A stretch of 64,000 nt of DNA, taken from assembly GCF_016903815.1 (NCBI RefSeq), contig NZ_CP069973.1; one strand, given 5' to 3'. The notes beneath the pieces were generated by a model, which worked only from the letters and a program-made list of their open reading frames with translations, was not told where the DNA came from and made no database searches. Positions 18,802-43,480 of this stretch are shown here, in pieces (position 1 is the stretch's first letter; each line of letters opens with the position of its first letter). This DNA comes from Escherichia coli. GTDB taxonomy: Bacteria; Pseudomonadota; Gammaproteobacteria; Enterobacterales; Enterobacteriaceae. The position numbers were made by a program, and so were the translations under genes.

Positions 18802-18877
18802 GCCCGGATAGCTCAGTCGGTAGAGCAGGGGATTGAAAATCCCCGTGTCCTTGGTTCGATTCCGAGTCCGGGCACCA
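18802..18877 (+). tRNA. pheV: tRNA-Phe (GAA anticodon)
   Basis: 76-nt cloverleaf gcccggatagctcagtcggtagagcaggggattgaaaatccccgtgtccttggttcgattccgagtccgggcacca; position after yqgA. Confidence 0.95.
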
Positions 18878-19074: not shown

Positions 19075-20337
19075 ATGGCACTGACTGACGCAAAAATCCG
19101 GGCTGCAAAGCCCACTGACAAGGCTTATAAACTTACTGACGGGGCCGGCATGTTCCTGCTGGTTCATCCTAATGGTTCCCGTTACTGGCGTCTCCGTTAT
19201 CGTATTCTGGGTAAGGAGAAGACTCTGGCACTTGGTGTGTATCCAGAAGTTTCTCTCTCCGAAGCTCGTACAAAACGGGATGAGGCCCGAAAACTGATTT
19301 CGGAGGGGGTTGACCCTTGCGAACAGAAAAGAGCTAAAAAAGTTGTCCCTGATTTACAGCTCTCTTTTGAACATATTGCACGACGCTGGCATGCCAGTAA
19401 TAAACAATGGGCACAATCACACAGCGATAAAGTACTCAAAAGCCTCGAGACACACGTTTTCCCCTTTATCGGCAACCGGGATATCACAACACTCAATACC
19501 CCGGACCTGCTTATCCCTGTTCGTGCTGCAGAAGCTAAACAAATTTATGAAATCGCCAGTCGTCTGCAGCAAAGAATATCTGCTGTAATGCGTTATGCCG
19601 TACAGTCTGGCATCATCAGATATAACCCGGCTCTGGATATGGCTGGTGCATTGACCACGGTAAAACGCCAGCATCGCCCTGCTCTGGATCTTTCACGCCT
19701 GCCTGAACTTCTGTCGCGTATTGACGGTTATAAAGGCCAGCCTGTCACCCGACTGGCAGTTATGCTGAATTTACTGGTTTTTATTCGTTCCAGTGAACTC
19801 AGATATGCCCGCTGGTCTGAAATTGATATTGACAATGCCATGTGGACTATTCCAGCCGAACGCGAACCTCTGCCGGGCGTAAAATACTCACACCGGGGCT
19901 CCAAGATGCGAACACCACATCTTGTGCCACTCAGCCAACAGGCTGTAGCCATACTGACAGAACTTCAGACATGGGCAGGTGAAAATGGTCTGATATTTAC
20001 GGGTGCACATGACCCGCGTAAACCAATCAGTGAAAATACTGTAAATAAAGCCCTCAGGGTGATGGGGTATGACACAACCCGGGAAGTCTGTGGCCATGGA
20101 TTCCGGGCGATGGCGTGCAGTGCATTGATTGAATCAGGTTTGTGGTCCCGCGATGCTGTGGAACGTCAGATGAGCCATCAGGAGCGTAATGGTGTACGTG
20201 CTGCGTATATCCATAAAGCAGAACATCTGGAAGAACGTCGACTGATGCTACAGTGGTGGGCAGATTTTCTGGATGCGAACAGAGAACAATGTATCAGCCC
20301 GTTTGAATATGCAAAGATTAACAATCCATTAAAATAG
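19075..20337 (+). CDS. P4-type tyrosine integrase
   Basis: 420-aa ORF, N-terminus MALTDAKIRAAKPTDKAYKLTDGAGMFLLVHPNGSRYWRLRYR typical of P4/CP4 integrases, adjacent to tRNA. Confidence 0.9.
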   Translation: MALTDAKIRAAKPTDKAYKLTDGAGMFLLVHPNGSRYWRLRYRILGKEKTLALGVYPEVSLSEARTKRDEARKLISEGVDPCEQKRAKKVVPDLQLSFEHIARRWHASNKQWAQSHSDKVLKSLETHVFPFIGNRDITTLNTPDLLIPVRAAEAKQIYEIASRLQQRISAVMRYAVQSGIIRYNPALDMAGALTTVKRQHRPALDLSRLPELLSRIDGYKGQPVTRLAVMLNLLVFIRSSELRYARWSEIDIDNAMWTIPAEREPLPGVKYSHRGSKMRTPHLVPLSQQAVAILTELQTWAGENGLIFTGAHDPRKPISENTVNKALRVMGYDTTREVCGHGFRAMACSALIESGLWSRDAVERQMSHQERNGVRAAYIHKAEHLEERRLMLQWWADFLDANREQCISPFEYAKINNPLK

Positions 20338-20433: not shown

Positions 20434-22038
20434 TTACTCCAGGGTTTCATTAAAGTTCTTTCGTAATACTTTGTAGTCAAACACGTTATGACTGGCATCA
20501 AAAACCACGGATTTCCCCTGCCAGCGGGTAATCACCTCCTCCGGCGTTTTCGGTTGAGCCGGTCTGGTTACGCCCATCCATGCATTAATCAGATAATCAT
20601 TATACGCAGTGGAAAAAACGCTGTTCACCGTCTGGCGATCGACATGCTCTCCCAGTGTCGGGCTGTACCAGATAAACATCGGAACATGATAAGCCTGCTG
20701 ACTGGGTTTTATTCCACCATGAAAATAGGCATGTTCTTTTGTCGGGTCATACTCCAGACCGTGATCTGAAAAATACATGACTGATGCCCGACGCGTTTCC
20801 AGCATGGCGAAAATCTGTCCCAACAAACTGTCGGTATAATGAATGGAATTATCGTAGCAGACTTCTTCTGTATCCAGCGGTTTAAACACGGCTTTATCTC
20901 TGGGCCAGTTACTGCAGACTGGCTCATGACTGCCCGTCAAATGCAGAACAATCAGTTTCCTGCCTCCCGGATTACTGTTCAGTGCTTCAGCCAGGTGTGG
21001 GAGCAGTAACTCATCATAGCCTCTGACATAAATTCTGTTTCTGGCCCGCATGGCGATACTGGCCACAGCCGTTCCGTTCTGTCGGAAAGCGGACTGCGCA
21101 CTGAGCCACCAGGTATCGAACCCCGCCTGATTCGCCATGTTGATAATGTTATCAGGGTAATTACGGATATCATGATGCAGTACACTATCGGCAGATAACG
21201 CCAGTGGAACAGCCAGCGCGGTGTAAGGTGCGCCACTGATTGCCTGAGTGAACAGTTTCAGTCGTGATTTCTGTTTCTGAAGCTCTGGTGTGGTAGGGCG
21301 CGAATACCCGTAAATGGACATGTTATCAGTCCTTGCAGATTCACCAATCACCAGAACAAATACGTCAGTGTTGTTATCCGTAATCACCAGATCGTAGTGA
21401 GGTATGGTATCAGCAATCGTCATTAATCTCTGATGCTCCTTTGCGGCCAGTGCAAAATAGTTCAGATTAAAGAAAGGGGTATATGTGGCAAACCGGGAAG
21501 CGACTATGTAAGGATCAACTTCATTTATTTGATACTGTTTCTTCAACGCAAACTGGAAGGAAGAATATAACGTTACTGTAATTAACAATAAAAATGTAAT
21601 TACCGTGACCTTTTCCGATGGCAATGAGGACGTTTTATTTATTGCTGAACAGAAGAACAATAAAAAGAGGATAATAAATGCGATAACATAAACAACATAC
21701 ATCCTGAACATTCTTATTGCTTCATCAGGATCTGTCTGTAGGATACTGATTGCAAAACCATCATTGAATGTGGTGTCAAATGTACACCATGAATACAGGC
21801 TGATACTGATATCTGCCGCGGTCAGTAATGTGAACGGAAAGGCCAGAATAAAACGCAGCGTAAGCGATTTCATCGCCTTAATAATAAGAATTGCCAGGAT
21901 AAAGAATAACACCCGGTAGATCAGATGTGCTCCTGAGGATACCAGGAGATTAGAAAGAGTAAAGACACCCACAGATAACACGAGGCACTTATCATTGCAA
22001 ATCCGCGGCCAGTGTATGAACGGAAGATTAATTTTCAT
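20434..22038 (-). CDS. sulfatase-family phosphoethanolamine transferase-like inner membrane protein
   Basis: N-terminal multi-TM region plus VLVIGESARTDNMSIYGY motif typical of PEtN transferases; start (MKINLPF) uncertain. Confidence 0.7.
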   Translation of the reverse strand: MKINLPFIHWPRICNDKCLVLSVGVFTLSNLLVSSGAHLIYRVLFFILAILIIKAMKSLTLRFILAFPFTLLTAADISISLYSWCTFDTTFNDGFAISILQTDPDEAIRMFRMYVVYVIAFIILFLLFFCSAINKTSSLPSEKVTVITFLLLITVTLYSSFQFALKKQYQINEVDPYIVASRFATYTPFFNLNYFALAAKEHQRLMTIADTIPHYDLVITDNNTDVFVLVIGESARTDNMSIYGYSRPTTPELQKQKSRLKLFTQAISGAPYTALAVPLALSADSVLHHDIRNYPDNIINMANQAGFDTWWLSAQSAFRQNGTAVASIAMRARNRIYVRGYDELLLPHLAEALNSNPGGRKLIVLHLTGSHEPVCSNWPRDKAVFKPLDTEEVCYDNSIHYTDSLLGQIFAMLETRRASVMYFSDHGLEYDPTKEHAYFHGGIKPSQQAYHVPMFIWYSPTLGEHVDRQTVNSVFSTAYNDYLINAWMGVTRPAQPKTPEEVITRWQGKSVVFDASHNVFDYKVLRKNFNETLE

Positions 22039-22159
22039 AATAATTGTGTAAAAGCGATATTTCTGTCCGGCACTGGTCGCTGAACATGCCGTGACAGGTG
22101 AATTCATTATTTTGAATAATCATAAAGCCGCCACAAATGTAGCGGCGTAAACAGGAGCG

Positions 22160-22444
22160 TCATGATGTTTTCTTTCGTGACAGAAGAGAACGGCACATAC
22201 CGCCCGCAATCATTATCATCAGGAATAACATCCCCAGGCCAACGATTACTCTTAATGCCGGATGAACCCGATCGGCGAGAAAAAATAACTCCATCCCGAA
22301 ACCAATAACAAGCCAGACCAGCGCCATTCCGACGAGCCCTTTTAACAGCAATCTCACGATCCTCTCCTTCTGCGTTCTTAACGAAAATGCCTTACAATAA
22401 CAGCAGCCGGAGAAAGCAACGCTGGCTGCTGAACGGAATGACAT
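22160..22444 (-). CDS. small hydrophobic protein (hypothetical)
   Basis: 94-aa ORF with TM-like stretch LVGMALVWLVIGFGMELFFL; last gene of the WYL cassette string. Confidence 0.35.
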   Translation of the reverse strand: MSFRSAASVAFSGCCYCKAFSLRTQKERIVRLLLKGLVGMALVWLVIGFGMELFFLADRVHPALRVIVGLGMLFLMIMIAGGMCRSLLSRKKTS

Positions 22445-22496
22445 TTTACTGTTTTATGTTCTCTCAGTTTCTATCCTGACGCCGCCATTAATGGCA

Positions 22497-22763
22497 TTAC
22501 AGTTTATTCAGAATAAGGCAGGCGGCCCGGTTTAATGCAATAAACTCCTGCCAGCTGTACTGAGACTGATAATTCAGTAAATACTGGTCTTCAACCCGGC
22601 AAATCTGTGGGCGTTTATCATAAATTGCACACAAATGAGAATCAGTCTGATAGTGACGGCAAATACCGTCACCACGATCCAGACATTGCGTTTCACCCGC
22701 CCTGTTGACATGACGACAACAGGCCCCACACTGGTTACAGGGAAATGGAGGGTGTAATTTCAT
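22497..22763 (-). CDS. YkgJ-family Cys-cluster (zinc/iron-chelating) protein
   Basis: CNQCGACC ... C-x-C motifs in 88-aa ORF; 4-nt overlap with upstream gene. Confidence 0.7.
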   Translation of the reverse strand: MKLHPPFPCNQCGACCRHVNRAGETQCLDRGDGICRHYQTDSHLCAIYDKRPQICRVEDQYLLNYQSQYSWQEFIALNRAACLILNKL

Positions 22764-24331
22764 CGCTTATTTAACCAGTCACGAACAGAAGCCACATTTC
22801 CTGACTCAAACGGCAACGCAATCCCTCGTCGGCTGACTTCTTCTCTCAGCAGAAGTCCGCGCTCTATCTCACTGTTTACGCTATCCAGATGAAGTGAAAA
22901 ATGATTTAACGCGGCAGCATCAACAGAAAATTCCAGTGCAGTAAGTTCCACAAGATAGCGATCAAGTTCAGCATTGACTGCCTGAAAGTATTCCAGTGAC
23001 CGCTGGAATTTGTCCTTAAATTTGTCCAGAAATGCCCATACCCGCTGCATAACCTCGCTATATTCGAGATAATAATTCATCACCAGCCCGAGAATACCTG
23101 TCGTCAGCGCACCACAAAAGGCAGCAAGCTCTGAACCAAATGGAAAAATAAGGATCTGCGCCATCGCCTCATTTATCATCACCCCACCGGCAACAGCCAC
23201 ACCTGCTGCTATCAGTTTAGTGACCGCTTTGGCTAACTGCCCCGGCGATAATCCCTCCGGGTTAAATACCAGGACTTTAAAGGCCTGAACGAGGTTGTTC
23301 CACATTTCCCTGATAAGCCGGACAATCATTCTTTCCGTCGTCAGGAATATATTTAACAGCGTTGTGGTAATACCTGACAGTATCCCTCCGATGACACCAT
23401 CTTTAAAGGCAATTAAAAAAGAACTGAATTTTTCCTGTACTCGTTCCTGGCAGGCACGTAATGCTGACGTTATTTCGGACAGGCATTTGCCGGCGCAGAA
23501 TGAGTTCCGTTGCTGTCTGATAATATGCGGGATTCGTTCCCTCAGTTCGAACCAGATCTCGGCAAGAATAAGCCCCAGCATCTGTCGCGTCCCCATACGA
23601 AAACCGGAATTAAGTGAAGCACTGGCGACAGCAGTAGCAAACTTACTACTCAGGTAATAGCTCTGATTAATCGTGGTCTCGTATTTTTCCCGGGCATATT
23701 TATCAGCCCTTTCCATACGCTCAGTATCTGCATCAGCTTTTTTTCTCAGACTTATCAGACGTTTCTTTTCTTTTTCTGTCAGTGTTGCCTGAGATTCAAG
23801 CTCTGCTATCTGCCTTAACGTATCTTCTCTGTTTTTCTGCAGCGTGCAAATAAACGCATCCATTGAGTCTGCTTTCTTTGATTTATTGAGCGACTCATGA
23901 GTGAATGCCAGATTTGAAGCGTCATTTGCCAGTTCTGCACCATCCCGTTCAGCAAGAATTCTCCCCGGATCATCATGAATTTCTTTAGCGGAAATAATAT
24001 GATCCAGATTTTTTTTATCGTCTGAAGCAAACACTTCGCCTGTATATGCATCAGTAAGAGTCCCTGACTGATGTGCACGCTTTCCTTTCCGGTTCGTCGC
24101 GATGTAGTTCTCATGGCTGTGGTAATGATGAGAATCATAGTCGCCACGACCTTCATACCGCTGTCGCTCAGCCTCCGTGGCATAAATGCCATTACGCACA
24201 TTATGGATAGTGTCAACATCACCACCCTTACGATCATTTAGCAACAGAAAATCCAGCCCGAATGATGCAACCAGGCTCTTCACCATGGTCTGATGTAACT
24301 CTTCTGCCCAGTCAAATTTTTCCACATTCAT
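22760..24331 (-). CDS. hypothetical 523-aa protein, soluble His/Asp-rich N-domain plus C-terminal multi-TM region
   Basis: ORF translation; N-terminal motifs GGDVDTIHNV, DHIISAKEIHDDPGR; hydrophobic helices in C-terminal half. Confidence 0.6.
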   Translation of the reverse strand: MNVEKFDWAEELHQTMVKSLVASFGLDFLLLNDRKGGDVDTIHNVRNGIYATEAERQRYEGRGDYDSHHYHSHENYIATNRKGKRAHQSGTLTDAYTGEVFASDDKKNLDHIISAKEIHDDPGRILAERDGAELANDASNLAFTHESLNKSKKADSMDAFICTLQKNREDTLRQIAELESQATLTEKEKKRLISLRKKADADTERMERADKYAREKYETTINQSYYLSSKFATAVASASLNSGFRMGTRQMLGLILAEIWFELRERIPHIIRQQRNSFCAGKCLSEITSALRACQERVQEKFSSFLIAFKDGVIGGILSGITTTLLNIFLTTERMIVRLIREMWNNLVQAFKVLVFNPEGLSPGQLAKAVTKLIAAGVAVAGGVMINEAMAQILIFPFGSELAAFCGALTTGILGLVMNYYLEYSEVMQRVWAFLDKFKDKFQRSLEYFQAVNAELDRYLVELTALEFSVDAAALNHFSLHLDSVNSEIERGLLLREEVSRRGIALPFESGNVASVRDWLNKR

Positions 24332-24377
24332 GTTATTTCACTTCTTGTAAAGCCGGGCTTTAACGCCCGGTAAATCA

Positions 24378-25457
24378 TTAACTCCGGGATGAAAAATCAT
24401 CAAATTTCACAACCGAACTGGCCAGTACATCATCCAGCTCTTCCTTATTAATAACATTCATTCCATTATCATCCTTTTCCATTTCAATAACGTTATCTTT
24501 TATCACAGCCTCACCATTTTCCTGTTTCCGCGGTTTAAACAGTGGCGTTGTAATAATATCCGTCATAATAGCGGCCAGTGAATATCCATGGTCAATAAGC
24601 ATAATGATTTCATCTGATACATTGATATCCTGTTGTTCTGTAATAACAGAATGCATGGATTTAAGCGGCTCAAAATAGTGTTTAATAAATACAGCATGCA
24701 TTCTGTTCAGCGCAGCGAGAATTTCATCAACGTATTGATTAACTTTTGCAAAATGCTCCCGGGCCAGATTCATTTTCTTAACTGCCCGTTCAACTTTGCA
24801 GGCACACTGATGGGCATTTTCAAGAGCTTTCGTCGCGTGTCTGTCGTAAGCCCAGCCCGCAATGGCAATCAACGGTGCAGCCACTGCGGTGCCTAATACC
24901 ATTGCGCCGCCGGCCATTCCCATGCCCCCTGCCGCGAGAGAGCCCCCTCCAATTGCCGCCATCGTCGCGTTATAAGCCGCGGCACCAGAAAGCGCTGCAA
25001 TGGGTGTACCTGTGGAAGCCGCAGCAAATGCCATCACTCCGCTATACACAGCAAAACCCGCAGCAGCCCCGGAAACTCCGGCAGCTACGACCGTACTGAG
25101 ATATTCTGTTGCTGAAATGGCCAGGTTATGAATCTTATTGATGTTATGTTGCGGGACACTCAGTTTCAGGTCTTTATTGCCCTCTTTTTCCAGACGCGCC
25201 AGGAGCTCAGCAGCAATCCTGTCGAACTCACTGAAATCTTTACCAATCTCAAGCTCTTTATTTCCGAGCGTTGTTAATTTTGATGATGTCTGAGCTTCAG
25301 CCTGCTCAAATTTTCCTTTATGCTCCTCGTAACGCTCTTTTGCTTTTTCGAGCACATCCTCTGCTTCTGACTTTTTTTGATATCCATCGTAAGCTTTTTT
25401 TCCGCCGAATGCCGCAGCGCCGGCAGCCACACCCAAAATAATGAAAGGTAACGCCAT
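24378..25457 (-). CDS. hypothetical membrane protein with Gly/Ala-rich glycine-zipper-like TM segment
   Basis: N-terminal TM MALPFIILGVAAGAAAF, coiled-coil-like charged region, Gly/Ala-rich stretch; AGGAGG RBS. Confidence 0.6.
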   Translation of the reverse strand: MALPFIILGVAAGAAAFGGKKAYDGYQKKSEAEDVLEKAKERYEEHKGKFEQAEAQTSSKLTTLGNKELEIGKDFSEFDRIAAELLARLEKEGNKDLKLSVPQHNINKIHNLAISATEYLSTVVAAGVSGAAAGFAVYSGVMAFAAASTGTPIAALSGAAAYNATMAAIGGGSLAAGGMGMAGGAMVLGTAVAAPLIAIAGWAYDRHATKALENAHQCACKVERAVKKMNLAREHFAKVNQYVDEILAALNRMHAVFIKHYFEPLKSMHSVITEQQDINVSDEIIMLIDHGYSLAAIMTDIITTPLFKPRKQENGEAVIKDNVIEMEKDDNGMNVINKEELDDVLASSVVKFDDFSSRS

Positions 25458-25495
25458 TCTTTTCCTCCTGTACAGGTTGCTTTATCATCAGTCAA

Positions 25496-25509
25496 CTGAA
25501 ATATTTCAG
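25496..25509. promoter_or_regulatory. 14-bp perfect palindrome CTGAAATATTTCAG between regulator and downstream gene
   Basis: Seen directly; overlaps regulator stop codon, about 40 bp upstream of next start. Confidence 0.3.
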
Positions 25510-26402
25510 GAAACATTCTCAGCGGTGAGGTATTTTCCTAACATTGTTAACACGGCTTCTTTCAACCATACTGGTTCAATAATTTCAACATTCGGTAGCC
25601 AGTATAAAATCAACGGGATAATTTGATTTTTATGTGCAGCCTTGCATGACAGCGTAATGCCATTATCATGTCTGTGTAGCAATTGCTGGTAAGGAAGTAA
25701 GTCCCGTCGCAAAAAATAATGGGCGATATTACTGTGAATGAACAACACTACATCAAATGTTTTGTCGCTCACCCACGGGTCACATGACTCACTTATCAGT
25801 GACTGTATTTCCTCACTCTTTGCAAACTTTTCTTTTTTTATATCCAGCCATTTTATTTTAGCTAATGAAAACGACTTTAACTTGTTCTCTTCAGTAGCCA
25901 GCAAATACCATATACTTCTCTGATTAGTTAATTTATAGGGATGAACGATTCTGGTCTTACCGGCATATGCAATCTGACAAATATTACTGTTGCGGATCGC
26001 TTTTTCAAGAACATCAAGATATTTTCTTAAATCATCCCTGATAGTGTGCTCAGGGTTATGAAACTGAACACGAATATGCTTTTCGGTTGCCCTGTTTTCT
26101 AATTTCTGCCAGAAACCTTCATCCCGTTCAGGAAAAATCGCATCAGTATCCAGTAACCTGGCCAGAGATTTGTGCAGTGATCCTTTGCTCTGGTTTCCTG
26201 CTCTTGCTGAAATAAGCCGGTATTTTCCATCGCCACAGGCTTCAATAAAGGGAGAAAGCATATTCAGATCACGATATGCTGTTCGCTCAGTGATGTTGTA
26301 TTTTTTCATCAAATTATGACGACTGACCACGCCATAATTCTGTAATTCAACAAGGATATCAATCAAACGCTCCGCTGAGCGATTTCTCGTTGAGTCAGCC
26401 AT
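25506..26402 (-). CDS. WYL-domain transcriptional regulator (HTH-WYL-WCX type)
   Basis: N-terminal HTH-like segment, WYL signature RSIWYLLATEENKLKSFSLAKI. Confidence 0.75.
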   Translation of the reverse strand: MADSTRNRSAERLIDILVELQNYGVVSRHNLMKKYNITERTAYRDLNMLSPFIEACGDGKYRLISARAGNQSKGSLHKSLARLLDTDAIFPERDEGFWQKLENRATEKHIRVQFHNPEHTIRDDLRKYLDVLEKAIRNSNICQIAYAGKTRIVHPYKLTNQRSIWYLLATEENKLKSFSLAKIKWLDIKKEKFAKSEEIQSLISESCDPWVSDKTFDVVLFIHSNIAHYFLRRDLLPYQQLLHRHDNGITLSCKAAHKNQIIPLILYWLPNVEIIEPVWLKEAVLTMLGKYLTAENVS

Positions 26403-26455
26403 AAATCACTGCACCTGTAGTATTACTCTTGTGTAAGTGAATTATATAAATACTC

Positions 26456-26472
26456 CTGACATCATTTGTCAG
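26456..26472. promoter_or_regulatory. inverted repeat CTGACAtcattTGTCAG upstream of WYL regulator
   Basis: Seen directly, about 55 bp upstream of regulator start; half-site resembles the 25496 palindrome. Confidence 0.3.
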
Positions 26473-26821
26473 TTCCACAAAACTACGCCCTCCGGCAACA
26501 GATTTTTATTTGATTATGTTCAAACTTTAAACCAGATGTCCGGGAGCCTCCTTCGTAATACGGTTTATTGTTTCCGGAAGGGCTGATATGACAAAAAACA
26601 ACGTGTCCCAACAACAGTCCTTTTTCATTTAACAGACTGACAACCATACTGCGCGCTACCTGCCCCCTGTAAAAAATCAACGAGAGTAATATTTTTGCTC
26701 TATTTATATTTCATTCATCTGAAATTATTAGTTGCCAGAGGGAGAATATCATCAGGATATCTGTTATTGATTTGTCATACCTGCACTTTACTGTGCTCCA
26801 AAGCGCAGGCAGAAATGGCCA

Positions 26822-27559
26822 TCAGAAGTTATATGTTGCACCTAACATAAACTCATTACTTCTGACATCAACAGAGGATTTATATTTAGCGCCATCCTCA
26901 TCTTTATAAGTCAGAGTGGAATCCCCTGCATCCAGATACCGGTAACTGAGGTCAAGGCTGAAATCCTGCGTCACATCGTATTTAACACCGACACCAAGGC
27001 TCCATGCCAGGTTATTTTCGTATTTTGACGCTGAAGCTGAATATACTTCACTGCCTGCCGGACTGTTATCGGTATATATGTACGAAGTTTTATGATGAAC
27101 CCGAGCATAACCCAGACCAGCAGATATCCATGGCGTGAATGCACTGCTGTTTCTGAAATCATAATACGCATTCAGCATCAGCGTGTTTACACTGAGCTTG
27201 TTCTGTGCATCATCAAACTCGGCACCACCGACACTTTCCCAATAACTCAGACGATATTTTGATTCAGCGTTACCGCGGCCATAAAACTCCACTTCAGTAC
27301 GCACCGGCACATTGTAGTGCTGATAAAAATCGTATCCCACCGCAAGGCCTGCGCCAAAAACCGTATCACTTTTGTCACCGCCTTTATATTTATCCGCCCA
27401 TGCCCCTTCACCATCAACGAAACGTTGCTCTGAAAGTGACATAACAGAAGCACCTGCTTTACCGGTCACATAAAAGCCTGTTTTGCTCTCATCAGCCAGA
27501 GTCTGGGCCGAAAACATGCCTGCCATTGCAAGCGCTGAAACCGCAATAACCTTTTTCAT
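26822..27559 (-). CDS. outer membrane beta-barrel protein (Tia/Hek/Hra-like adhesin-invasin family)
   Basis: Signal peptide MKKVIAVSALAMAGMFSAQTLA, alternating aromatic beta-strand pattern, C-terminal ...LGATYNF. Confidence 0.7.
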   Translation of the reverse strand: MKKVIAVSALAMAGMFSAQTLADESKTGFYVTGKAGASVMSLSEQRFVDGEGAWADKYKGGDKSDTVFGAGLAVGYDFYQHYNVPVRTEVEFYGRGNAESKYRLSYWESVGGAEFDDAQNKLSVNTLMLNAYYDFRNSSAFTPWISAGLGYARVHHKTSYIYTDNSPAGSEVYSASASKYENNLAWSLGVGVKYDVTQDFSLDLSYRYLDAGDSTLTYKDEDGAKYKSSVDVRSNEFMLGATYNF

Positions 27560-27877
27560 TTCAATCATCTCCGTTGGTTCTTGCCCTACCCGACAAAGAG
27601 GGTTGCCTATTTTAAAACCATGCAAAAGACAGGGTAAAATGGTTACAACCGATCGATGTGATCATATCGATCGGTAAAATCGATCGATATTGGTGAGGGT
27701 TTTCGTTTCGAATCAACAAAATGGTAATGATGGGGCCCGGACTGAAATGCTGTGTCCCAGAAGCCCGGAAGGTTTGCATTACAACTGCACCACAGTACAA
27801 AATGTCAGACACAGTAAAAAAGACTGGGTAATCAACCCACCAGAGAAAACACGTTTATTGCAAAAGAGAGGGGAATT

Positions 27878-28351
27878 ATGTGCAAACTGACTAAAGAAGA
27901 AGAATACAGCATCATCAGTCGGACAATGACGAATATTCGTTCACTACGCACGTATGTACGCGAACTTGATTTTGAGCAATTACTCGACATGCAGGAAAAG
28001 CTCAACACTGTTATTGAAGAACGCCGTGAAGATGCTGAACGAAAAGCGGCTGAACGTAAGGAACTGGAAACTAAATGTCAACAGGTATTTGAGTACATCG
28101 TTTCTGTGGGGCTTGACCCGGAAGAATGGCAGGGTCCAGTTTCTGCTATTGCAGGGACAACGGAAACCAAACGAAAACCCAAAGGCGGTGTGAGAAAAGC
28201 GAAATATATCTTTGAGGATGAGAACGGCGAAACCAGGACGTGGTCTGGTAACGGTAAAATGCCACTTGCTTTGCGGAAACAGGTTAATGGAGATTGTACC
28301 CTGGAAACTTTCCTCATTGAAAAACCCAATCAACATGAACAAAGTGAATAA
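27878..28351 (+). CDS. H-NS family nucleoid protein paralog
   Basis: Translation aligns by eye with H-NS (NIRSLRTYVRELDFEQLLDM...; AKYIFEDENGETRTWSGNGKMP). Confidence 0.8.
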   Translation: MCKLTKEEEYSIISRTMTNIRSLRTYVRELDFEQLLDMQEKLNTVIEERREDAERKAAERKELETKCQQVFEYIVSVGLDPEEWQGPVSAIAGTTETKRKPKGGVRKAKYIFEDENGETRTWSGNGKMPLALRKQVNGDCTLETFLIEKPNQHEQSE

Positions 28352-28902: not shown

Positions 28903-29910
28903 TTATCTATAGCGTTTTTGTAAACTGGCAGGAAGATAACGCTGTAATGGGGATGGCGTTTCACCTTCAATCAGTTGCGAAATAAGCTCAAAGCAGTGAA
29001 AAGCAAGTTGGCGATTATCCTGTTGTATTGTGTCGATTCTTACCGAAAGTGAATCATACAAATAATGATCATCAAAACTCGCCAGGTGGATTGTACTGTC
29101 GAGTAAATTATATTGGCTCATATAGCGCAGAACGCCTTCCAGTAATCCACAAGCGGCAGTGAATAAGGCTTTAGGAGGACGTCCTAAACGAGCGCATAGC
29201 GCGGCAAACATTTCATAGCCTGAGCTCGGATGATAATTACCGTGAATAATCCATTCAGGTTGTAGCGTTACTCCGGCTTGCTGCAAGCCTTGTGTAAATC
29301 CTTCCAGTCGATCGCGAGTCGGTGACAAACGGGGTTGTCCCCCCAGAAAATAGAATTCATCCGGGTGACTCCGTGCAATATCTGCCACCAGAGCGGCGGT
29401 GGGAGAAACAGAGTCAGTAATGACCAATGGCAATGTGCTGCCGTTCATGTGGCGATCGAACAACACAACAGGTAATTGCTCGCTAAGTTTTTGATAGTCA
29501 TTATCATGCAGCATACTGGATGCGACGATTAACCCATCAACCTGGCGGGCAATCATATTGTTCACCACCATTGTTTCCTGTGAAGGATTTTCATCAGTAC
29601 AGGATATGAGGAGTTGGACGCCCGCTTCCCGACACAATGTTTCCAGTTCATGGGAAAATACTGCAAATCCGTAGTTAGTGATTTCAGGAACGACGAGACC
29701 AATGGTATGACTGCGGTTGTCCCGTAATGAGCGGGCATGAATGCTGGGCTGATAATGCTGCTGTTGGGCAATACTCAGCACACGCTCACGCGTTTCCTGC
29801 GCAACACGTAACTCTTTGCCACGACCATTGAGAACCAGACTGGCGGTTGCTTTCGACACTCCCGCCAGTTCAGCAATGTCTTTAATAGTAACGCGTTTGG
29901 TTTTTCTCAC
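28903..29910 (-). CDS. scrR: LacI-family sucrose operon repressor
   Basis: N-terminal [26 protein letters not shown]; sugar-binding domain; position after scrB. Confidence 0.85.
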
Positions 29911-29935
29911 GACGAGGATCCGTAATTCAAAACCC

Positions 29936-31345
29936 TCATTCTACCATGCAGGCGCGTAGCGACCAGTAGCGTAACGTGACGTCAGACTCACCCTGTAATA
30001 TCAGCGAAGCTGGATGATGGGGAAAATAACGATTACTCATTACACCTTCACCATTATTGATGAATATCTCTACGCTGGAACTGTCACAGAGAATCTTCAG
30101 TGACGTTACGCTTCCTCGCCAGTAACGAGTTAGTTTCTCTTGCCCTGCAAGGCTTCTCCTCTGTAGTTGAATACCATCGTCATTAAGATGCAGTGCCAGC
30201 GCATTGCCAAAATTCAGATACAGCTCACCCGACGGAATGATGTCCATTTCCAGGCGTTCAATTTCGACATGCGGCGCATGATCCGCTTTTCCTTGCCAGA
30301 AGTGTTCAGCTTCACGCAGTTGCGCGAGTTCCCTGATTGGCATCTGAAACAATTTTCCCTTCTGGAATGAGAGTTCGCGAAAACAGGTCATTTGATGCTG
30401 CCAATGATGCTTTCTGGTTGGCTGCAACATCTCTTCGCCATCAGGAACCCCCATCCAGCCGACCAGCAATCGTCGCCCGTCCGGGGCTTCCATCGTCTGT
30501 GGTGCATAGAATTCAAATCCCGCATCCAGCTCTGAGAAAGCGCCATGCGTAAATTTGCCTGTCTCGTAATCAAACTGTCCATGTAGCCAGGCGCAGGGAT
30601 AAGTATTCAGATAGCGCTCATGTTCGCGCACCATTCCCTGGGGGCAACAGAGGAGAATGTATTCACCATCAAGGGCGAAAAGATCAGGACATTCCCACAT
30701 GTATCCTGCGTTATCTATTTCATTCAGACCGTTACCAGCAATTTCTCCATGAAAAGACCAGGTATTCAGATCGACAGAGGAATACAGCAGCACTTTCCCC
30801 CGTTTCTCTTTATCTTGCGCGCCAAGCACCATGTACCATTGGCTGTTGTGCTTCCAGACTTTTGGATCACGAACATGTCCGGTGTAACCATCAGGTAACG
30901 ATATGACAGGGCCTAGTTTATCAAACCCGCCCTGGTTATTTTCGGTGGCCAGACATTGCCATGCCGTTCTGCTGCCATCATCAAACTTAACATTACCGGT
31001 ATAGCAAAGTGTGAGAACGCCCTGATTATTAACCGCGCTTCCTGAGTAACAACCATTACGGTCGTACTCTTTATCGGGCATTAGCGCTAATGGTTCATGC
31101 TGCCAGTGCAATAAATCCGTCGAACTCCAGTGCCCCCAACATTTGTACTTATGATCACAAGCCAGTGGATTCCACTGATAAAACAGATGATAGCGGCCTC
31201 CAGACCAGCAAAAGCCATTTGGATCGTTCATTAGTCCGGTGACGGGAGCGAGATGCCAACAAGGATAGTGGGCATCTGCCAGTGCTTTGGACTGACCTTT
31301 CATCACTGCCTGTAAAATCGCGGGCATTTGTGAAGGCATCGACAT
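29936..31345 (-). CDS. scrB: sucrose-6-phosphate hydrolase (GH32)
   Basis: GH32 motifs [15 protein letters not shown] and WECPD. Confidence 0.85.
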
Positions 31346-32715
31346 TACTCCTCGTCCGTTTTGTATTTGAATAATAAAGAGAGGCTAAAAGCGACAGCGA
31401 AAGCAATCACCATTCCAATAATATAATTAACCAACGATGTTGGCTGAACGATTGCCATGCCGGGTATTGCGGTCAGACCAACGGCAGTCATATAAACGTG
31501 AACAGAGACAACCCAGGCACCGCCGGCAGCGCCACCAATTAAGGCCGCAATAAAAGGTTTAACAAAACGAAGGTTGATACCAAAAATAGCGGCTTCAGTA
31601 ATCCCTAACATTGCGGAAAAGGCCGAGGGTAGGGTGATTGCTTTAATTTTTGTATCTTTGGTTTTAAACCATACCGCCAGACATGCACCGCCTTGCGCAA
31701 CGTTTGCCATTGCCCAAATAGGCAGCAGGAAATTAACACCGATTGCAGGGTTACCTAAAAGTCCTGCTTCAATTGCGTGGAAGCTATGATGAATACCCGT
31801 AATAACAATCGCTGAATATAGCCCGCCGAATAACAACCCTGCTAACCAGCCTGCGTGTGCAATCAGCGTGCTGAGAACGAAAGAGATACCGTCACCTAAC
31901 GCTCGTCCTGCCGGACCAATAATCAAAAGAGCGATAAAGCCAGAAATGACGACAGTCAGAAATGGCGTCAGAATGAGATCCAGAGCATCAGGGATAAACC
32001 TGCGTAACTGTTTTTCCACTATGCTCATAAACCATACTGCCAGAAGCACGGGGAAAACCGTTCCCTGATAGCCAATCATGGCGATTTCAAAACCGAAGAA
32101 GTTCATTGTCTGAAATCCCGCAGCAACGCCCCAGGCATTTGTGAGTGCCGGGTGAGTCAGAATCCCTCCTAATGTCGCGCCAAGATAAGGATTTCCACCA
32201 AATTCACGAGCAGCAGTAAAGCCAATAAGGATGGGGAGAATAATAAATGCGGCTGAACTGCACATATCCAGCAGGATATAAATCGCATTATCGGTATTCA
32301 CCCAGCCATATGTTTTCACCATTCCCAGAAGCCCCATTAATAAACCAGAAGCAACAATGGCTGGAATGATGGGGACAAAAATATTAGAAAGTAGCCGTGC
32401 TATTCGCTGAAAAGGATTGAGTTTTTGAGCGGCGAGTCGAGCGATATCTGCTTTACTGGATTCGCTAATACCTGCAACCTGAATAAAGGCAGCATAGACT
32501 TTATTAACCACGCCGGTGCCAAAGATAATTTGCATTTGCCCTGAATTACGAAAACAACCTTTCACTCCATCAATCTGGCCAATGGCATGTTGATCGGCAA
32601 GTGTGTCGTCAACCAGTACCAGCCGTAGGCGAGTGGCGCAATGTGCTGCACTGGCGATGTTCTCCTTACCACCTAATAAAGGAAGCAACGATTGGGCGAT
32701 TTTATCGAAATCCAT
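31345..32715 (-). CDS. scrA: PTS sucrose-specific EIIBC component
   Basis: EIIB motif AHCATRLRL then multi-TM EIIC. Confidence 0.85.
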   Translation of the reverse strand: MDFDKIAQSLLPLLGGKENIASAAHCATRLRLVLVDDTLADQHAIGQIDGVKGCFRNSGQMQIIFGTGVVNKVYAAFIQVAGISESSKADIARLAAQKLNPFQRIARLLSNIFVPIIPAIVASGLLMGLLGMVKTYGWVNTDNAIYILLDMCSSAAFIILPILIGFTAAREFGGNPYLGATLGGILTHPALTNAWGVAAGFQTMNFFGFEIAMIGYQGTVFPVLLAVWFMSIVEKQLRRFIPDALDLILTPFLTVVISGFIALLIIGPAGRALGDGISFVLSTLIAHAGWLAGLLFGGLYSAIVITGIHHSFHAIEAGLLGNPAIGVNFLLPIWAMANVAQGGACLAVWFKTKDTKIKAITLPSAFSAMLGITEAAIFGINLRFVKPFIAALIGGAAGGAWVVSVHVYMTAVGLTAIPGMAIVQPTSLVNYIIGMVIAFAVAFSLSLLFKYKTDEE

Positions 32716-32775
32716 ATAACCCTCTAATTCATTGTTATTTCAGTAAAAACTTCACATCTGTGAGGTTGTCTGGTA

Positions 32776-34317
<1,542 letters not shown>

Positions 34318-34460
34318 TTATAAAAATTGCTAAAATGCTAAACCGGTTTAGGTGTTGATAATAAAGCTGACTTTTTAGCCAAAGCAATTATTTTCGCTAA
34401 ACCGATTTAGTAAATGTGACAGGCACGACAAATCGGGTTACAGATACAACAGCAGGATCA

Positions 34461-35381
34461 CTATTGTGAAGGGAGATCGTGTTGTCGGGGTAAGGCGGTC
34501 ATCGCGCCTTTAGCCGTGGTCGCCAGAGCACCACAAATCTGAGCTTGTACAATGATTCGTTCAAGCTGTCTGGTATTTGTTGGTATTCCAGAATCAGCCA
34601 GACCGGCAAGTAATCCAGCGACAAAAGCATCTCCTGCCCCGGTCGTATCGACGACAGAAACAGGTTTGGCGGGATAGTGGATAAACTGCCCCTGAAAATA
34701 CACAAGTACGCCATTTTTTCCTTGTGTGATAAGCAATAAAGTCAACGAATAACGTTGTACTAATGAATATGCGCCTTGCTGAACCTGGCTTTCGCCACTG
34801 ATGAATAGCAACTCTTCTTCGGACAATTTAGCGATATTCGCCAGCGAAAGTGCGCGATCAAGGTATTTCCTTAATAGCGCTTCACTCTGCCAGAGATCGC
34901 TGCGGATATTGGGATCAAAACTGATGTTTCCGCCAGCCTGACGTATTTTCTCCATAGCCAGAAATGCGGTACTTCGGGAAGGTTCTGCACTGAGCGCAAT
35001 GGAACAAAGATGGAGCCATTCACCCGGCCCAAATGCAGGAAGGCCATCAGGTTGTAAAAAAAGATCGGCACTTGGGCGTACCATAAAGGTAAAGTTTCTT
35101 TCTCCTTGCTCATCAAGTCCTACAGCCACAATTGAGGTGCGATGTTGAGGATCAAGAGACATATAACGTGTATCAACATTTTCTGTACTCAGTGTCTGAT
35201 ACATAAAGCGACCGAAAGGATCATCGCCAACTTTGCCAATAAAGGCACTTTTCCCCCCCAGCCTTGCGATACCGACTGCAACATTAGCAGGCGCCCCGCC
35301 AGGACACTGTAGTAGTCTCCCCTGGCTTTCGGGTAATAAATCAACAACCGCATCACCAAGTACCCATACTCTTGTGCTCAT
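34461..35381 (-). CDS. scrK: fructokinase (PfkB family)
   Basis: PfkB motifs GGAPANVAVG and DTTGAGDAFVAGLL. Confidence 0.85.
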   Translation of the reverse strand: MSTRVWVLGDAVVDLLPESQGRLLQCPGGAPANVAVGIARLGGKSAFIGKVGDDPFGRFMYQTLSTENVDTRYMSLDPQHRTSIVAVGLDEQGERNFTFMVRPSADLFLQPDGLPAFGPGEWLHLCSIALSAEPSRSTAFLAMEKIRQAGGNISFDPNIRSDLWQSEALLRKYLDRALSLANIAKLSEEELLFISGESQVQQGAYSLVQRYSLTLLLITQGKNGVLVYFQGQFIHYPAKPVSVVDTTGAGDAFVAGLLAGLADSGIPTNTRQLERIIVQAQICGALATTAKGAMTALPRQHDLPSQ

Positions 35382-35940
35382 AAAGGCTCCAATATACTAA
35401 TTGCTAAACTAATTAAATCGATTTAGCAATTAAAGCATAAACGCTGCTCAGGAGAGAACAATATTCATCAATAGTTACGTGGTATTTTGTTGTGAGAATA
35501 TGTCGGAAATATGGTAAGTGATGAGATAGTCTTCCCCCACCTTCACGACCGCTTTCAATTGCGCCATAGCGAATAAATTTTAACCACAAAAGTAAGAGAA
35601 AGGCCATGATTGAACAGAAAATTACCGACATCGCTCAGGCTAAAACGAACTTTTATCTTTTCAGTATCAATGCTCGTGGCAATCACGCGGGAAAGATCAA
35701 ACTTTCTCACAACCAACTGCTTAACTGGCTGGTATAACAGCCAAAATGACCGTTGCGATGAAGGCTTGCGGGACATCCCATCACTGCCCACAGGAAATAA
35801 GGGAACTCAACTATGATGTAATATTGCATCCAGCACAACATGTTAAATCTTATCAATGGCGTCAGAAAAATGATTATAACAACGCACAGCAATAGCTGAA
35901 ACCTATCAATATAGAACTATACGACTGGTACCAATAAAAA

Positions 35941-35972
35941 GTCTGGACCTACAGAACGTCCAGGCTTTTTTG
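35941..35972. terminator. bidirectional hairpin terminator
   Basis: aaaagtctggacctacagaacgtccaggcttttttg; plausibly the original terminator of the gene now interrupted by IS3. Confidence 0.45.
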
Positions 35973-36214
35973 AAAATGCATCGGTTGATCTCGATGGAAG
36001 GACACAACTGATAGATCATGTTCTTGGACTTCTTACTGAATACGGCATTGTGTTCAGTAAAAGCGCAACAGAATTACGCCCCAAATTACCGGCATTACTT
36101 GAGGATGCGGCGATGCTGTACCTGCGGATTGGTACATGCCGTCTGAACAATATGGCTCCAGAAAAATGGCTGTGAACCGCCCCGGGTTTCCTGGAGAGTG
36201 TTTTATCTGTGAAC

Positions 36215-37105
36215 TCAGGCTGCCAGATCATCGTTTCCGATGGAAGCATAATAAGCTTTTTCTGCTTCTGCCGGAGGAGTATGGCCCAGCCTTCCCAGCA
36301 ATCGTCGATTGTTATACCAGTCCACCCACGTTAGTGTGGCCAGTTCCACTTCTGCACGGTTTTTCCAGCTCTTACGGTGTATTACCTCCGCTTTGTAAAG
36401 ACCATTGATGCTCTCAGCCATCGCGTTGTCATACGAGTCGCCTGTACTCCCTGTTGATGCCAGTAATCCGGCTTCTTTTAGTCGCTCCGTATAGGCCAGT
36501 GACACATACTGAGAGCCTTTATCGCTGTGATGGATGGTGCCAGACGGACGACGGGCCCACAACGCCTGCTCCAGCGCATCCAGCACGAATGTCGTTTCCA
36601 TAGACGATGAGACCCGCCACCCCACGATGTATCCGGCAAACACATCAATGATAAACGCCACATAGACGAAGCCCTGCCATGTGCTGACGTAAGTAAAATC
36701 AGCCACCCACAGCTGGTCAGGTCGTTCTGCCACGAACTGACGGTTTACGCGGTCGCCTGCGGCAACGGCTTTCCGGCTGATGGTCGTACGGACCTTTTTA
36801 CCCCGGAGAACACCGGCAAGTCCCATAACCGCCATGAGACGTGCCACTGTACATCTGGCCACCCTGATTCCTTCCCGTAACAACTGACGCCAGACTTTAC
36901 GCACACCGTACACCTGATGATTTTCATCGTATACGCGCTGTATCTCTCTCTTCAGCCAGTCGTCGTGCTGCGCACGGGCACTGCGTTTATCCGGATGATG
37001 TCGCTGTTGCTGACAATGGTAATACGTTGACGGGGCAATATGCAGTTCGCTGCATACCGGTCCGACCCCGTACTGCTCACGCAGCTTATCCAGCAGTGGC
37101 ATCAT
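36215..37105 (-). CDS. insF: IS3 transposase OrfB (DDE integrase domain)
   Basis: 296-aa translation recognised as IS3 InsF. Confidence 0.85.
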
Positions 37106-41879: not shown

Positions 41880-42209
41880 ATGTCAAAACCCCGATGGACC
41901 ATTGAACAGAAAAGGCAGCACGTTGCTGCCTGGCGCGCCAGTGGTCTTACACGTCAGCAATACTGTGAACTCAACGATATTCCCTTCACATCACTTCGCG
42001 AATGGCCGCAGGATGTCGCAAAAGCTGAACGCCGGGCAAATGAACCGACCGTTCTTCCCGTTCATATTGCGCCACCACTGCATGCTGATGTACCACAGCC
42101 CGTCACGAATGAGCCAGTCACGCTCTTCCTTCCCGGCGGAGTACGGATGTGCTGTCAGCCGTCACAACTTACCGATGTCTTCAGGGCGCTCAAATATGCT
42201 CAGTCCTGA
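41880..42209 (+). CDS. IS66-family accessory protein Orf1 (TnpA)
   Basis: Small HTH-like ORF preceding the IS66 Orf2-like gene. Confidence 0.55.
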   Translation: MSKPRWTIEQKRQHVAAWRASGLTRQQYCELNDIPFTSLREWPQDVAKAERRANEPTVLPVHIAPPLHADVPQPVTNEPVTLFLPGGVRMCCQPSQLTDVFRALKYAQS

Positions 42210-42588
42210 TAATGTCTTCATCGCGATTAAACCTGTTGACATGCGCCGGGGCATCGACACACTGACGCAGTATATACAGGATGAACTCCGGTCGACATGG
42301 CATGAGGGAGCCGCCTTCGTCTTTGTTAACAAAGTCCGTTCGCGTATCAAAGTTCTCCGGTGGGATAAACACGGGGTGTGGTTGTGTACCCGCCGTCTGC
42401 ACAAAGGCAGCTTCCGCTGGCCACGTGCAAATGATGCTGCCTGGCACCTAACTCCCGACGAGTTTAACTGGCTGATTGCCGGTGTTGACTGGCAGCAGGT
42501 TAAGGGACATGACCTGACGAAATGGGGCTGGCAGAATGAACCTGAACTGCGCCCTGAAAACACGCAAAATACACTGCTAACTCAGTGA
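42196..42588 (+). CDS. IS66-family Orf2 (TnpB)
   Basis: Translation MLSPDNVFIAIKPVDMRRGIDTL...RLHKGSFRWP typical of IS66 Orf2. Confidence 0.7.
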   Translation: MLSPDNVFIAIKPVDMRRGIDTLTQYIQDELRSTWHEGAAFVFVNKVRSRIKVLRWDKHGVWLCTRRLHKGSFRWPRANDAAWHLTPDEFNWLIAGVDWQQVKGHDLTKWGWQNEPELRPENTQNTLLTQ

Positions 42589-42594
42589 AAAATA

Positions 42595-43480
42595 ATGAAT
42601 ATCCGTATCTGGAGTGGTATACTCCCCTGTATGGATATCTCCGCTCTCAACACCACGAATGACATCGAAAAACTGCGTGCTATGGCACTTACCATGGTAC
42701 AAAAAGTCATGTCGGAGAATGCCGAAAAAGAGCGGGAATTACTGGAGAAAAGCCGGCGCATCCAGCTTCTGGAAGAAATGCTGAAACTGGTTCGTCAACA
42801 GCGCTTCGGTAAAAAATGTGAAACGCTGGCTGGTATGCAACGCTCCCTGTTCGAAGAGGATGTTGATGTCGATATCGCCGCGCTTACCGCACATCTGGAT
42901 AAACTGCTCCCGCAATCCCCTGAAGAAGACGAAAAAGCGTCCCGTTCACGCCCGATACGCAAACCCTTACCGGCTCATCTTCCACGGGTGGAAAAAATTA
43001 TCCAGCCGGACACTGACCATTGCCCTGAATGTGACGAGCCGCTGCACTATATCCGTGATGCGGTGAGTGAAAAGCTGGAGTATATTCCCGTTCACTTCGT
43101 GGTGAACCGTTATGTCCGTCCGCAATACAGTTGTTCCTGTTGCCAGAAGGTGTTCAGCGGTGAAATGCCGGCACATATCCTCCCGAAAAGTGCCGTTGAG
43201 CCATCAGTCATCGCACAGGTGATCATCAATAAATACGGTGACCACCTGCCTCTGTATCGCCAGCAACAGGTCTTTGCCCGTTCAGTGTCGGGCTGCCCGT
43301 CAGTTCGATGGCTGACATGGTTGGCGCGGCGGGTGCCGCATTATCTCCCCTGGCGGCGTTACTCCATCGCGAGTTGATAAACCGTCCGGTGGTGCATGCA
43401 GATGAGACTACCCTGAAGATCCTGAACACTAAGAAAGGCGGTAAATCCTGCTCCGGTTATCTGTGGGCAACCAGCCTTCC
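42595..43480 (+). pseudogene. IS66-family transposase (TnpC), frameshifted and 3'-truncated
   Basis: Zn-ribbon CPECDEPL ... CSCCQKV, then HADETTLKILN in another frame; homology ends near 43480. Confidence 0.65.

Follow-up and report, generated by a model that had tools for sequence, protein, structure and literature searches.

Kiwa and Zorya, which belong to the few envelope-acting defences of bacteria, are multi-subunit systems that pair an inner-membrane component with a cytoplasmic, DNA-directed component. In SNIPE (PD-lambda-1), a single transmembrane (TM)–DUF4041–GIY-YIG protein cuts phage DNA during injection and spares self DNA through its confinement to the membrane (bioRxiv 10.1101/2025.11.03.685801). 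Nearest in sequence to the locus described here are two predictions, PDC-M09 and PDC-M40, which stand among 145 ‘phage defence candidates’ found, by a guilt-by-embedding approach, within BREX, DISARM or type I restriction–modification (RM) systems (Payne et al., 2024; bioRxiv 10.1101/2024.01.29.577857). We have analysed a cassette of four genes, here called W, A, B and C, in a 64,000-nucleotide stretch of Escherichia coli DNA (contig NZ_CP069973.1, assembly GCF_016903815.1; this whole stretch is referred to as the window). W encodes a WYL-type regulator, A a glycine-zipper membrane protein, B a membrane protein with a candidate nuclease domain and C a small cysteine-cluster protein. A, B and C almost certainly constitute a conserved module that is frequently headed by a WYL gene, and the function of this module probably lies in conflict or defence. 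No description of such a system was found in the literature searched, where papers on the pheV island and on E. coli defence islands are silent on A–B–C.

Of these two candidates, PDC-M09 has two genes and PDC-M40 three, the B-like gene being the second of the three; the cassette resembles each in one subunit. When searched against PADLOC, B matches PDC-M40B (E 1.8e-42) and A matches PDC-M09A (1.7e-22 and 6e-15), and the same pair of matches recurs in the Pseudomonas, Vibrio, Dorea, Veillonella and Treponema homologues. Neither gene set is complete: PDC-M40A and PDC-M40C have no match at E ≤ 0.1 in W, A, C or the small fifth open reading frame (ORF) that follows C, and PDC-M09B has none among the cassette proteins. 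Because one subunit of each is matched, with moderate scores in every lineage tested, we regard the A–B–C family as a sister of PDC-M09 and PDC-M40. NCBIfam and PHROGs hold no informative family for A, B or C. There is likewise no PADLOC match to KwaA, KwaB or Zor proteins and hence no homology with Kiwa or Zorya, although Kiwa adjoins the cassette in one locus (L096). A preliminary description of the window, made from the sequence alone, had recognised nothing in the cargo proteins and had proposed an undescribed defence or stress module. The first view holds in so far as no known transporter or envelope-stress family was matched, and has to give way where A and B find PDC-M09A and PDC-M40B; the second is supported by the A–B–C unit and its mobile and defence-island contexts, with the qualification that PADLOC already includes distant relatives of A and B among its candidates.

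Homologues scattered rather than co-localised had been named beforehand as one outcome that would refute the proposal, and the opposite is clearly seen. We searched 100,044 species, each represented by a single genome, for conserved B peptides, which yielded 174 genomes with a B relative, and analysed the best 80 of the 174 loci with hidden Markov models of A, B, C and W. A adjoins B in 79 of these 80 loci, the sole exception being cut by a contig end, and C adjoins B in 76 after a targeted re-search, two of the four exceptions being cut by sequence ends. The loci belong to at least five phyla and come from Proteobacteria, Bacillota, Spirochaetes, Desulfovibrio and Fibrobacter. The order (W)-A-B-C is found in Gamma-, Beta- and Alphaproteobacteria and in Veillonella, and the order B-C-A or B-A-C in 17 loci (Ruminococcus, Lachnospiraceae, Dorea, Ligilactobacillus, Saccharibacillus, Treponema, Desulfovibrio, Fibrobacter and others). 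Linkage that outlasts such reshuffling of gene order across phyla argues strongly that A, B and C function as one module. For W, A, B and C alike, full-length homologues number in the hundreds, which shows that they are real genes rather than chance ORFs; at 50% identity, the B family alone forms 1101 clusters with E ≤ 1e-3 in a set of 1.84 billion proteins, and 492 with E ≤ 1e-30. A WYL gene is adjacent in 46 of the 80 loci, co-directional in 41 and divergent only in five, so that the core of the module is A–B–C, with W a frequent companion. In Vibrio, Moraxella and Mesocricetibacter, a gene for a TerB-like protein of 130 amino acids (aa) lies between W and A. In Acinetobacter pecorum, 2.6 kb upstream of A-B-C (2296–4261 of that locus), there is another WYL gene, behind which comes a diverged relative of A (E 4e-50); the two may be a second or partial system.

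We tentatively favour the reading that W, A, B and C form a WYL-regulated inner-membrane system, in which A, B and C would defend the cell against phages, plasmids and other incoming DNA by means of a membrane-tethered nuclease. The nuclease would be B. Its N-terminal domain is rich in His and Asp and is modelled by AlphaFold2 with a predicted local distance difference test score (pLDDT) > 90 over residues ∼70–220. Residues D110-H111, N140 and N149 are invariant across 32 diverse sequences, and in the model they are carried by two strands (107–111 and 141–145) and a helix (146–152), all with pLDDT > 90. The pattern, DH...NL...N..K, is that of DUF1524/HNH nucleases: a presumptive catalytic His preceded by Asp, plus Asn ligands, in a ββα-type arrangement. 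GmrSD/BrxU-type DUF1524 HNH enzymes show DH(I)...NL...N..K with similar spacing, but B lacks their DUF262/ParB-like NTPase domain, and its best Pfam match, to GmrSD_C, is weak (E 0.2). A comparison with a small GmrSD-like profile gave an hhalign probability of 0.9%, with only the NL...N half-motif aligned; that profile was built from a GmrSD-like DUF262 protein of a Klebsiella plasmid, the homologues of which are too alike. The top Foldseek match is Cas9 (E 0.28), and neither the full B profile nor an N-domain profile found anything significant among PDB sequences. Statistical support for placing the predicted domain in the HNH/His-Me class is thus thin. Beyond it, B consists of a coiled coil, hydrophobic helices at 312–331, 366–396 and 393–420, and a helical C-terminal domain.

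A has an N-terminal hydrophobic helix (residues 1–20) and Gly/Ala-rich hydrophobic segments at ∼119–146 and 179–204. Its AlphaFold2 model (predicted template modelling score 0.71) contains long helices at 15–91, 103–126, 206–274 and 281–302, with a Gly/Ala-rich hydrophobic hairpin between helices, the Gly-rich tip of which is modelled with low confidence. The glycine zipper, ASTGTxIxxLSGxAAxNAxxAAxGGGSxAxGGxGxAxG, is at least 90% conserved in alignments even across Proteobacteria, Bacillota and Spirochaetes. No Pfam family was found for A, and a profile of A gave no significant match to PDB sequences. We also tested for a membrane module shared by A and B; the two are not homologous (hhalign probability 2.8%).

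A zipper so highly conserved keeps a different mechanism in serious contention. In abortive infection, the zipper of A would oligomerise into a pore or collapse the membrane potential, B would destroy DNA in the dying cell, and W would repress the system until infection. We nevertheless consider this unlikely, and favour direct cleavage over it, for two reasons. Firstly, 34 of the 80 loci have no adjacent repressor-type gene. Secondly, Aeromonas jumbo phages (LAh10, D3, D6 and D9; seven records, ∼260 kb) keep an A–B pair, with ∼30% identity for B, the catalytic residues of B intact and no C or W gene; retention by a phage fits superinfection exclusion better than host suicide. In phage LAh10 (NC_070956.1) the pair occupies 3979–6575 of the fetched locus, and the next gene is annotated as PagP-like.

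The databases offer other identities for both proteins. RefSeq and GenBank product names would make B an ATP:cob(I)alamin adenosyltransferase and A a chemotaxis protein, an explanation to which we give almost no credence. Neither Pfam nor NCBIfam returned an adenosyltransferase family for B, and we reject that name; the name ‘chemotaxis protein’, given by RefSeq to homologues of A, is rejected in turn because A has no methyl-accepting chemotaxis protein (MCP) signalling domain. Among 37 A homologues a single MCP signalling match was seen, at E 4e-3 and over coiled coil, and cobalamin or chemotaxis genes are linked to the cassette in none of the loci examined. Both ‘ATP--cob(I)alamin adenosyltransferase’ (B) and ‘chemotaxis protein’ (A homologues) have been widely propagated in RefSeq and GenBank without Pfam or NCBIfam support.

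C matches the Pfam CxxCxxCC family PF03692 (8.1e-4), and NCBIfam YcgN models at 7e-4 at best, well under their cut-offs. In 75 homologues the pattern FpCxxCGxCC...LDrGDGxC...CxIYxxRPxiCrV...C is kept, together with seven or eight cysteines (C9, C12, C15, C16, C35, C45, C54 and a C-terminal Cys). Single-sequence PDB searches found no solved relative. The name ‘YkgJ family’ is used by RefSeq for the copies in Klebsiella and for some of those in E. coli. The C gene, although intact and conserved, goes unannotated in many RefSeq E. coli genomes, that of strain 222 included, and is annotated in a few others; it is likewise uncalled in the V. cholerae and most V. parahaemolyticus records.

W carries QRSIWYLLATEE, the WYL signature region, and matches the Pfam families WYL (1.5e-8, residues 128–184) and WCX (2.2e-7, residues 216–291) as well as the PADLOC WYL models (9e-23). 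The N-terminal HTH matches, HTH_11 (E 0.0019) and HTH_DeoR (E 0.013), are weak but correctly placed at residues 12–50. By its domains, W is an HTH-WYL-WCX (class A WYL) transcription factor. In the PDB it weakly matches 7u02/7tzv (E 0.003), both named only ‘WYL domain-containing protein’, which we take to be fragments of DriD. With BrxR, CapW, DriD, PafBC and DdaA it shares the HTH-WYL-WCX architecture, first place in the operon and a palindromic site that covers its own promoter. The preliminary description had pointed to switches of the BrxR/CapW type, and membership of W in that family was not borne out: W lacks Pfam matches to WHD_BrxR (PF26109) and BrxR_CTD (PF26107), which the true BrxR genes of loci L006 and L096 have, and is only 20% identical to the BrxR of locus L006 (E 7e-4). 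We therefore reject membership of the BrxR/CapW family.

The putative operator of W is a perfect palindrome, CTGACA-N5-TGTCAG, which is unique within the window. In 10 loci from Enterobacterales and in one from Acinetobacter, W is preceded at the corresponding place by a site of the form TGAC(A/G)-N5-(C/T)GTCA, where ∼0.013 such sites per region would be expected by chance; the Pseudomonas and Vibrio clades of W lack it. The block TATATAATTC is kept in the W upstream regions of Citrobacter and Pectobacterium. We infer that W binds the palindrome over its own promoter and, by analogy, that it would respond to single-stranded DNA as other WYL factors do. The GACA-N5-TGTC core of the palindrome resembles the DdaA motif, CGWCA-N5-TGWCG, and the WYL factors DriD, PafBC and DdaA control DNA-damage regulons (PMC12392091).

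On our preferred reading, of a membrane-tethered nuclease, W bound at CTGACA-N5-TGTCAG would switch the W-A-B-C transcript upon a nucleic-acid signal, for example single-stranded DNA, as suggested by other HTH-WYL-WCX factors. A would be anchored in the inner membrane by its N-terminal helix and glycine-zipper hairpin, with its long helical stalk in the cytoplasm, and B by its three hydrophobic helices. The strict co-occurrence of A and B leads us to infer that they form a hetero-oligomeric membrane complex. B would hold its HNH/His-Me-type head on the cytoplasmic face and cut DNA at the membrane, whether on its way in or already located there. C would be a cytoplasmic Zn or Fe–S cysteine-cluster protein, translationally coupled to B, and might act as a cofactor or switch of the nuclease. 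We place the stalks, the head of B and C in the cytoplasm because no signal peptide is present and because metal clusters held by thiolates require reducing conditions. Foreign DNA would then be told from self by where it is, not by its sequence, functionally as in SNIPE. SNIPE is the nearest functional analogue: it anchors its nuclease domain in the inner membrane, as the cassette would. The likeness is one of analogy only. The SNIPE nuclease is of the GIY-YIG type behind an N-terminal TM segment, whereas the HNH-like domain of B is N-terminal, its hydrophobic helices are C-terminal and it has two partner proteins; the cassette has no PADLOC match to PD-Lambda-1 and no Pfam match to DUF4041 or GIY-YIG, and B is not homologous to SNIPE.

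We then considered where the cassette is found. At least 80% of it is present in 373 of 5426 complete E. coli genomes (6.9%), always on the chromosome, and its DNA is 100% identical in many of them. Other E. coli genomes have cassette fragments only, or insertion sequence (IS) insertions, and many keep just a fragment of the WYL gene. NZ_CP189959.1 and NZ_CP054556.1 are among the strains with an IS inside the cassette; in one kind of split cassette the element is ISVsa5 and two genes bear the name ‘cobalamin adenosyltransferase’, and in the other it is of the IS3 family and the regulator appears twice in the annotation. B is present in 69 plasmid records of PLSDB, among which Klebsiella accounts for 39 and conjugative plasmids for 23; an IncFIB plasmid, for example, carries W-A-B-C with W truncated beside an IS3 transposase gene. 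In V. parahaemolyticus, the cassette adjoins conjugative transfer (Tra) genes and is apparently on an integrative and conjugative element (ICE). In H. influenzae, a pangenome study of non-typeable strains places W-A-B-C genes of 813, 1185, 1494 and 270 bp at 32,591–36,468; they are labelled as a WYL gene, two hypothetical genes (1185 and 1494 bp) and a YkgJ-family gene, and are tabulated, uncommented, within the accessory set that distinguishes the C1 cluster, an emerging septic-arthritis lineage (PMC11932112).

Several of these locations suggest a further possibility, that the module serves its carrier as a weapon, excluding entry or superinfection and destroying the DNA of competing plasmids, ICEs or phages. 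The Tra genes of the apparent ICE, the plasmid records, the integrase-bearing islands with ArdA and the jumbo phages are all consistent with it; the many chromosomal copies without an obvious element speak against it. Mobile-element weaponry would differ from defence of the cell only in the beneficiary, which sequence data cannot separate, and we judge it improbable as the primary role.

The neighbours of the cassette change and often belong to defence systems. In V. cholerae the same W-T-A-B-C block stands beside BREX in one strain and beside Wadjet in others. An identical cassette in Morganellaceae has three types of flank: Kiwa, BrxR, type I RM and GmrSD; type I RM and a PvuRts1I-like enzyme; or Hachiman; an integrase and ArdA are nearby. 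In a Pseudomonas strain it abuts a STAND-type NTPase. We also examined, for 30 species, the largest ORF no more than 6 kb away, a sample which, lacking a matched control, is indicative only: there were five strong defence matches (two type III restriction enzymes, an Azaca ZacB, a GmrSD-like protein and a GajB-like helicase), two weak ones and one Tn7-type TnsB. This sample suggests an enrichment of defence genes near the cassette; many loci have housekeeping neighbours only.

The housekeeping settings are among the points that could support a reading outside immunity. The cassette would then be a membrane-remodelling or DNA-processing module, induced by DNA damage or envelope stress and akin to bacterial dynamin-like systems, which might, for example, clear or resolve DNA trapped at the membrane or septum, or repair membrane lesions. 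Consistent with this, the helical stalk and Gly-rich segment of A weakly match the C-terminal part (∼375–600) of LeoBC, of the Eleos (LeoA/LeoBC) system, at E 0.0058 here and at 7e-7 in a Pseudomonas homologue; the gene for a distant B-like protein of 873 aa is directly followed by that for an 819-aa Dynamin_N protein, which takes the place of A and C; other WYL factors run DNA-damage regulons; and the core of the palindrome resembles the DdaA motif. However, the LeoBC matches fall on the compositionally biased, low-complexity Gly/Ala region, LeoA/LeoBC is itself listed as defence in PADLOC, and neither A nor B matches Dynamin_N or any GTPase domain. The patchy, mobile distribution, over a small fraction of E. 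coli, plasmids, ICEs and islands, and the repeated siting in defence islands with changing neighbours are both typical of accessory conflict systems rather than of housekeeping repair. We consider a stress module distinctly unlikely, less so than a weapon of the carrier element.

The B-like protein paired with a Dynamin_N protein is encoded by a small Rep3/ParA/Mob plasmid from Logan assemblies, where a 169-aa TM protein follows; the locus (4882–9979) contains no A or C homologue. Another B-like protein, with an N-terminal extension of ∼90 aa (locus 5337–7650), is preceded by a 217-aa protein with a Gly-rich TM segment and a TerB-like ADGEIS...E motif, which may be the partner type represented by other PDC subunits. 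Together with the likeness of A to LeoBC, these two pairings tie the superfamily to dynamin-like membrane machinery. They would accommodate a more detailed, and rather doubtful, version of the membrane-tethered nuclease: a tripartite inner-membrane immune complex in which a dynamin-paddle-like A positions the HNH nuclease, entering DNA is cut, C acts as a switch, and jumbo phages use A–B for superinfection exclusion. If this were true, B-like nucleases with dynamins or Gly-zipper/TerB partners would mark a membrane-nuclease superfamily.

Should the module be immune in function, a multi-subunit, membrane-embedded nuclease would join SNIPE, Zorya and Kiwa, and three families would acquire a function: the HNH-membrane family (∼1100 clusters at 50% identity), the mislabelled glycine-zipper family and the YkgJ-type family. 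The module occurs in ∼7% of complete E. coli genomes, on Klebsiella plasmids, in islands and apparent ICEs of Vibrio and Morganellaceae, and in lineages of Haemophilus influenzae; because these include pathogens, it could have a bearing on phage therapy and on the spread of plasmids. The locus can easily escape notice, because the names of A and B mislead, C is often unannotated and PADLOC matches one subunit per candidate.

In the window, the cassette lies in the E. coli pheV (tRNA-Phe) island, after speC, yqgA, the tRNA-Phe gene, a P4-type integrase gene and a phosphoethanolamine transferase gene, in that order (Table 1). The preliminary description of the locus proved accurate in most respects. 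All five ORFs are present on the minus strand at the coordinates first given, as a co-directional and tightly packed string: the gaps are 48 nt between W and A, 46 nt between A and B and 52 nt between C and the small ORF, and the start codon region of C overlaps the stop of B by 4 nt. The string does follow the integrase and the phosphoethanolamine-transferase-like gene, and the reading of W as a WYL factor with its signature, of A as a protein with an N-terminal TM helix and a Gly/Ala-rich zipper, of B as having a His/Asp-rich N-domain and C-terminal helices, and of C as YkgJ-type was confirmed by the analyses given above. G+C content is 0.42–0.46 over the 21–27 kb bins, against 0.50–0.55 for most core genes upstream. 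Rfam finds no RNA element within 21900–27000.

The fifth ORF is a different matter. It is present as a small hydrophobic ORF, as had been described, and has two hydrophobic helices, but it is not conserved with the module, being found at the E. coli locus only (one of 80 loci). The RefSeq version, of 65 aa, has its own AGGAG-GTG start. Together with the terminator (22127–22451) it also occurs alone at unrelated chromosomal positions, for example in NZ_CP060928.1 and NZ_CP195934.1, and we reject it as a member of the module. In this genome it is probably co-transcribed with the cassette: a consensus scan predicted no terminator-like site between C and the small ORF, and the hairpin GCCGCTACATTTGTGGCGGC, followed by TTTATGATT, is the probable end of the transcript.

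Table 1. Features of the window in and around the W-A-B-C cassette (positions are those of the 64,000-nucleotide stretch).
Feature	Position	Strand	Basis or remark
tRNA-Phe	18802–18877		
P4-type integrase	19075–20337		
Phosphoethanolamine (PEtN) transferase	20434–22107	−	
Terminator-like hairpin, GCCGCTACATTTGTGGCGGC then TTTATGATT	22127–22146	−	Consensus scan: 8-pair stem, 6 G-C pairs
Small 2-TM ORF, 94 aa	22160–22444	−	RefSeq version: 65 aa, 22160–22357
C, YkgJ-type CxxCxxCC protein, 88 aa	22497–22763	−	Pfam PF03692
B, HNH/His-Me-finger-like N-domain and hydrophobic helices, 523 aa	22760–24331	−	Invariant residues, AlphaFold2 model, PADLOC
A, glycine-zipper membrane protein, 359 aa	24378–25457	−	Alignments, AlphaFold2 model, PADLOC PDC-M09A
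W, HTH-WYL-WCX transcription factor, 298 aa	25506–26402	−	Pfam, PADLOC
−10-like hexamer TATAAT	26441–26446	−	9 nt downstream of palindrome; read from sequence, predicted promoter
Putative WYL operator, perfect palindrome CTGACA-N5-TGTCAG	26456–26472	−	Ends 54 nt upstream of W start codon
OmpX/opacity-type β-barrel outer membrane protein	26822–27625	−	Directly upstream of W
H-NS-family paralogue	27878–28351	+	Beyond OmpX-type gene
Sucrose phosphotransferase system (PTS) operon	28903–35381		Follows H-NS paralogue
IS3 transposase ORF	36215–37105	−	Adjoins MkoA-like ORF
MkoA-like ORF, 1074 aa	37454–40678	−	PADLOC Mokosh MkoA
TssF, type VI secretion baseplate	41902–43377	+	Beside IS66 fragments
TssG, type VI secretion baseplate	43429–45929	−	Beside IS66 fragments

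Further into the island, the OmpX-type gene, the H-NS paralogue and the sucrose PTS operon have no PADLOC match. The 1074-aa ORF beyond them matches Mokosh MkoA (E 2e-188) over profile positions 2–1030 of 1607 only; it looks like a Mokosh type I gene that was truncated to about two-thirds of its length by the adjoining IS, in the same pheV island and 11 kb from the cassette. The genes for TssG and TssF stand alone beside the IS66 fragments; the annotation of the near-identical strain 222 treats them as partial pseudogenes.

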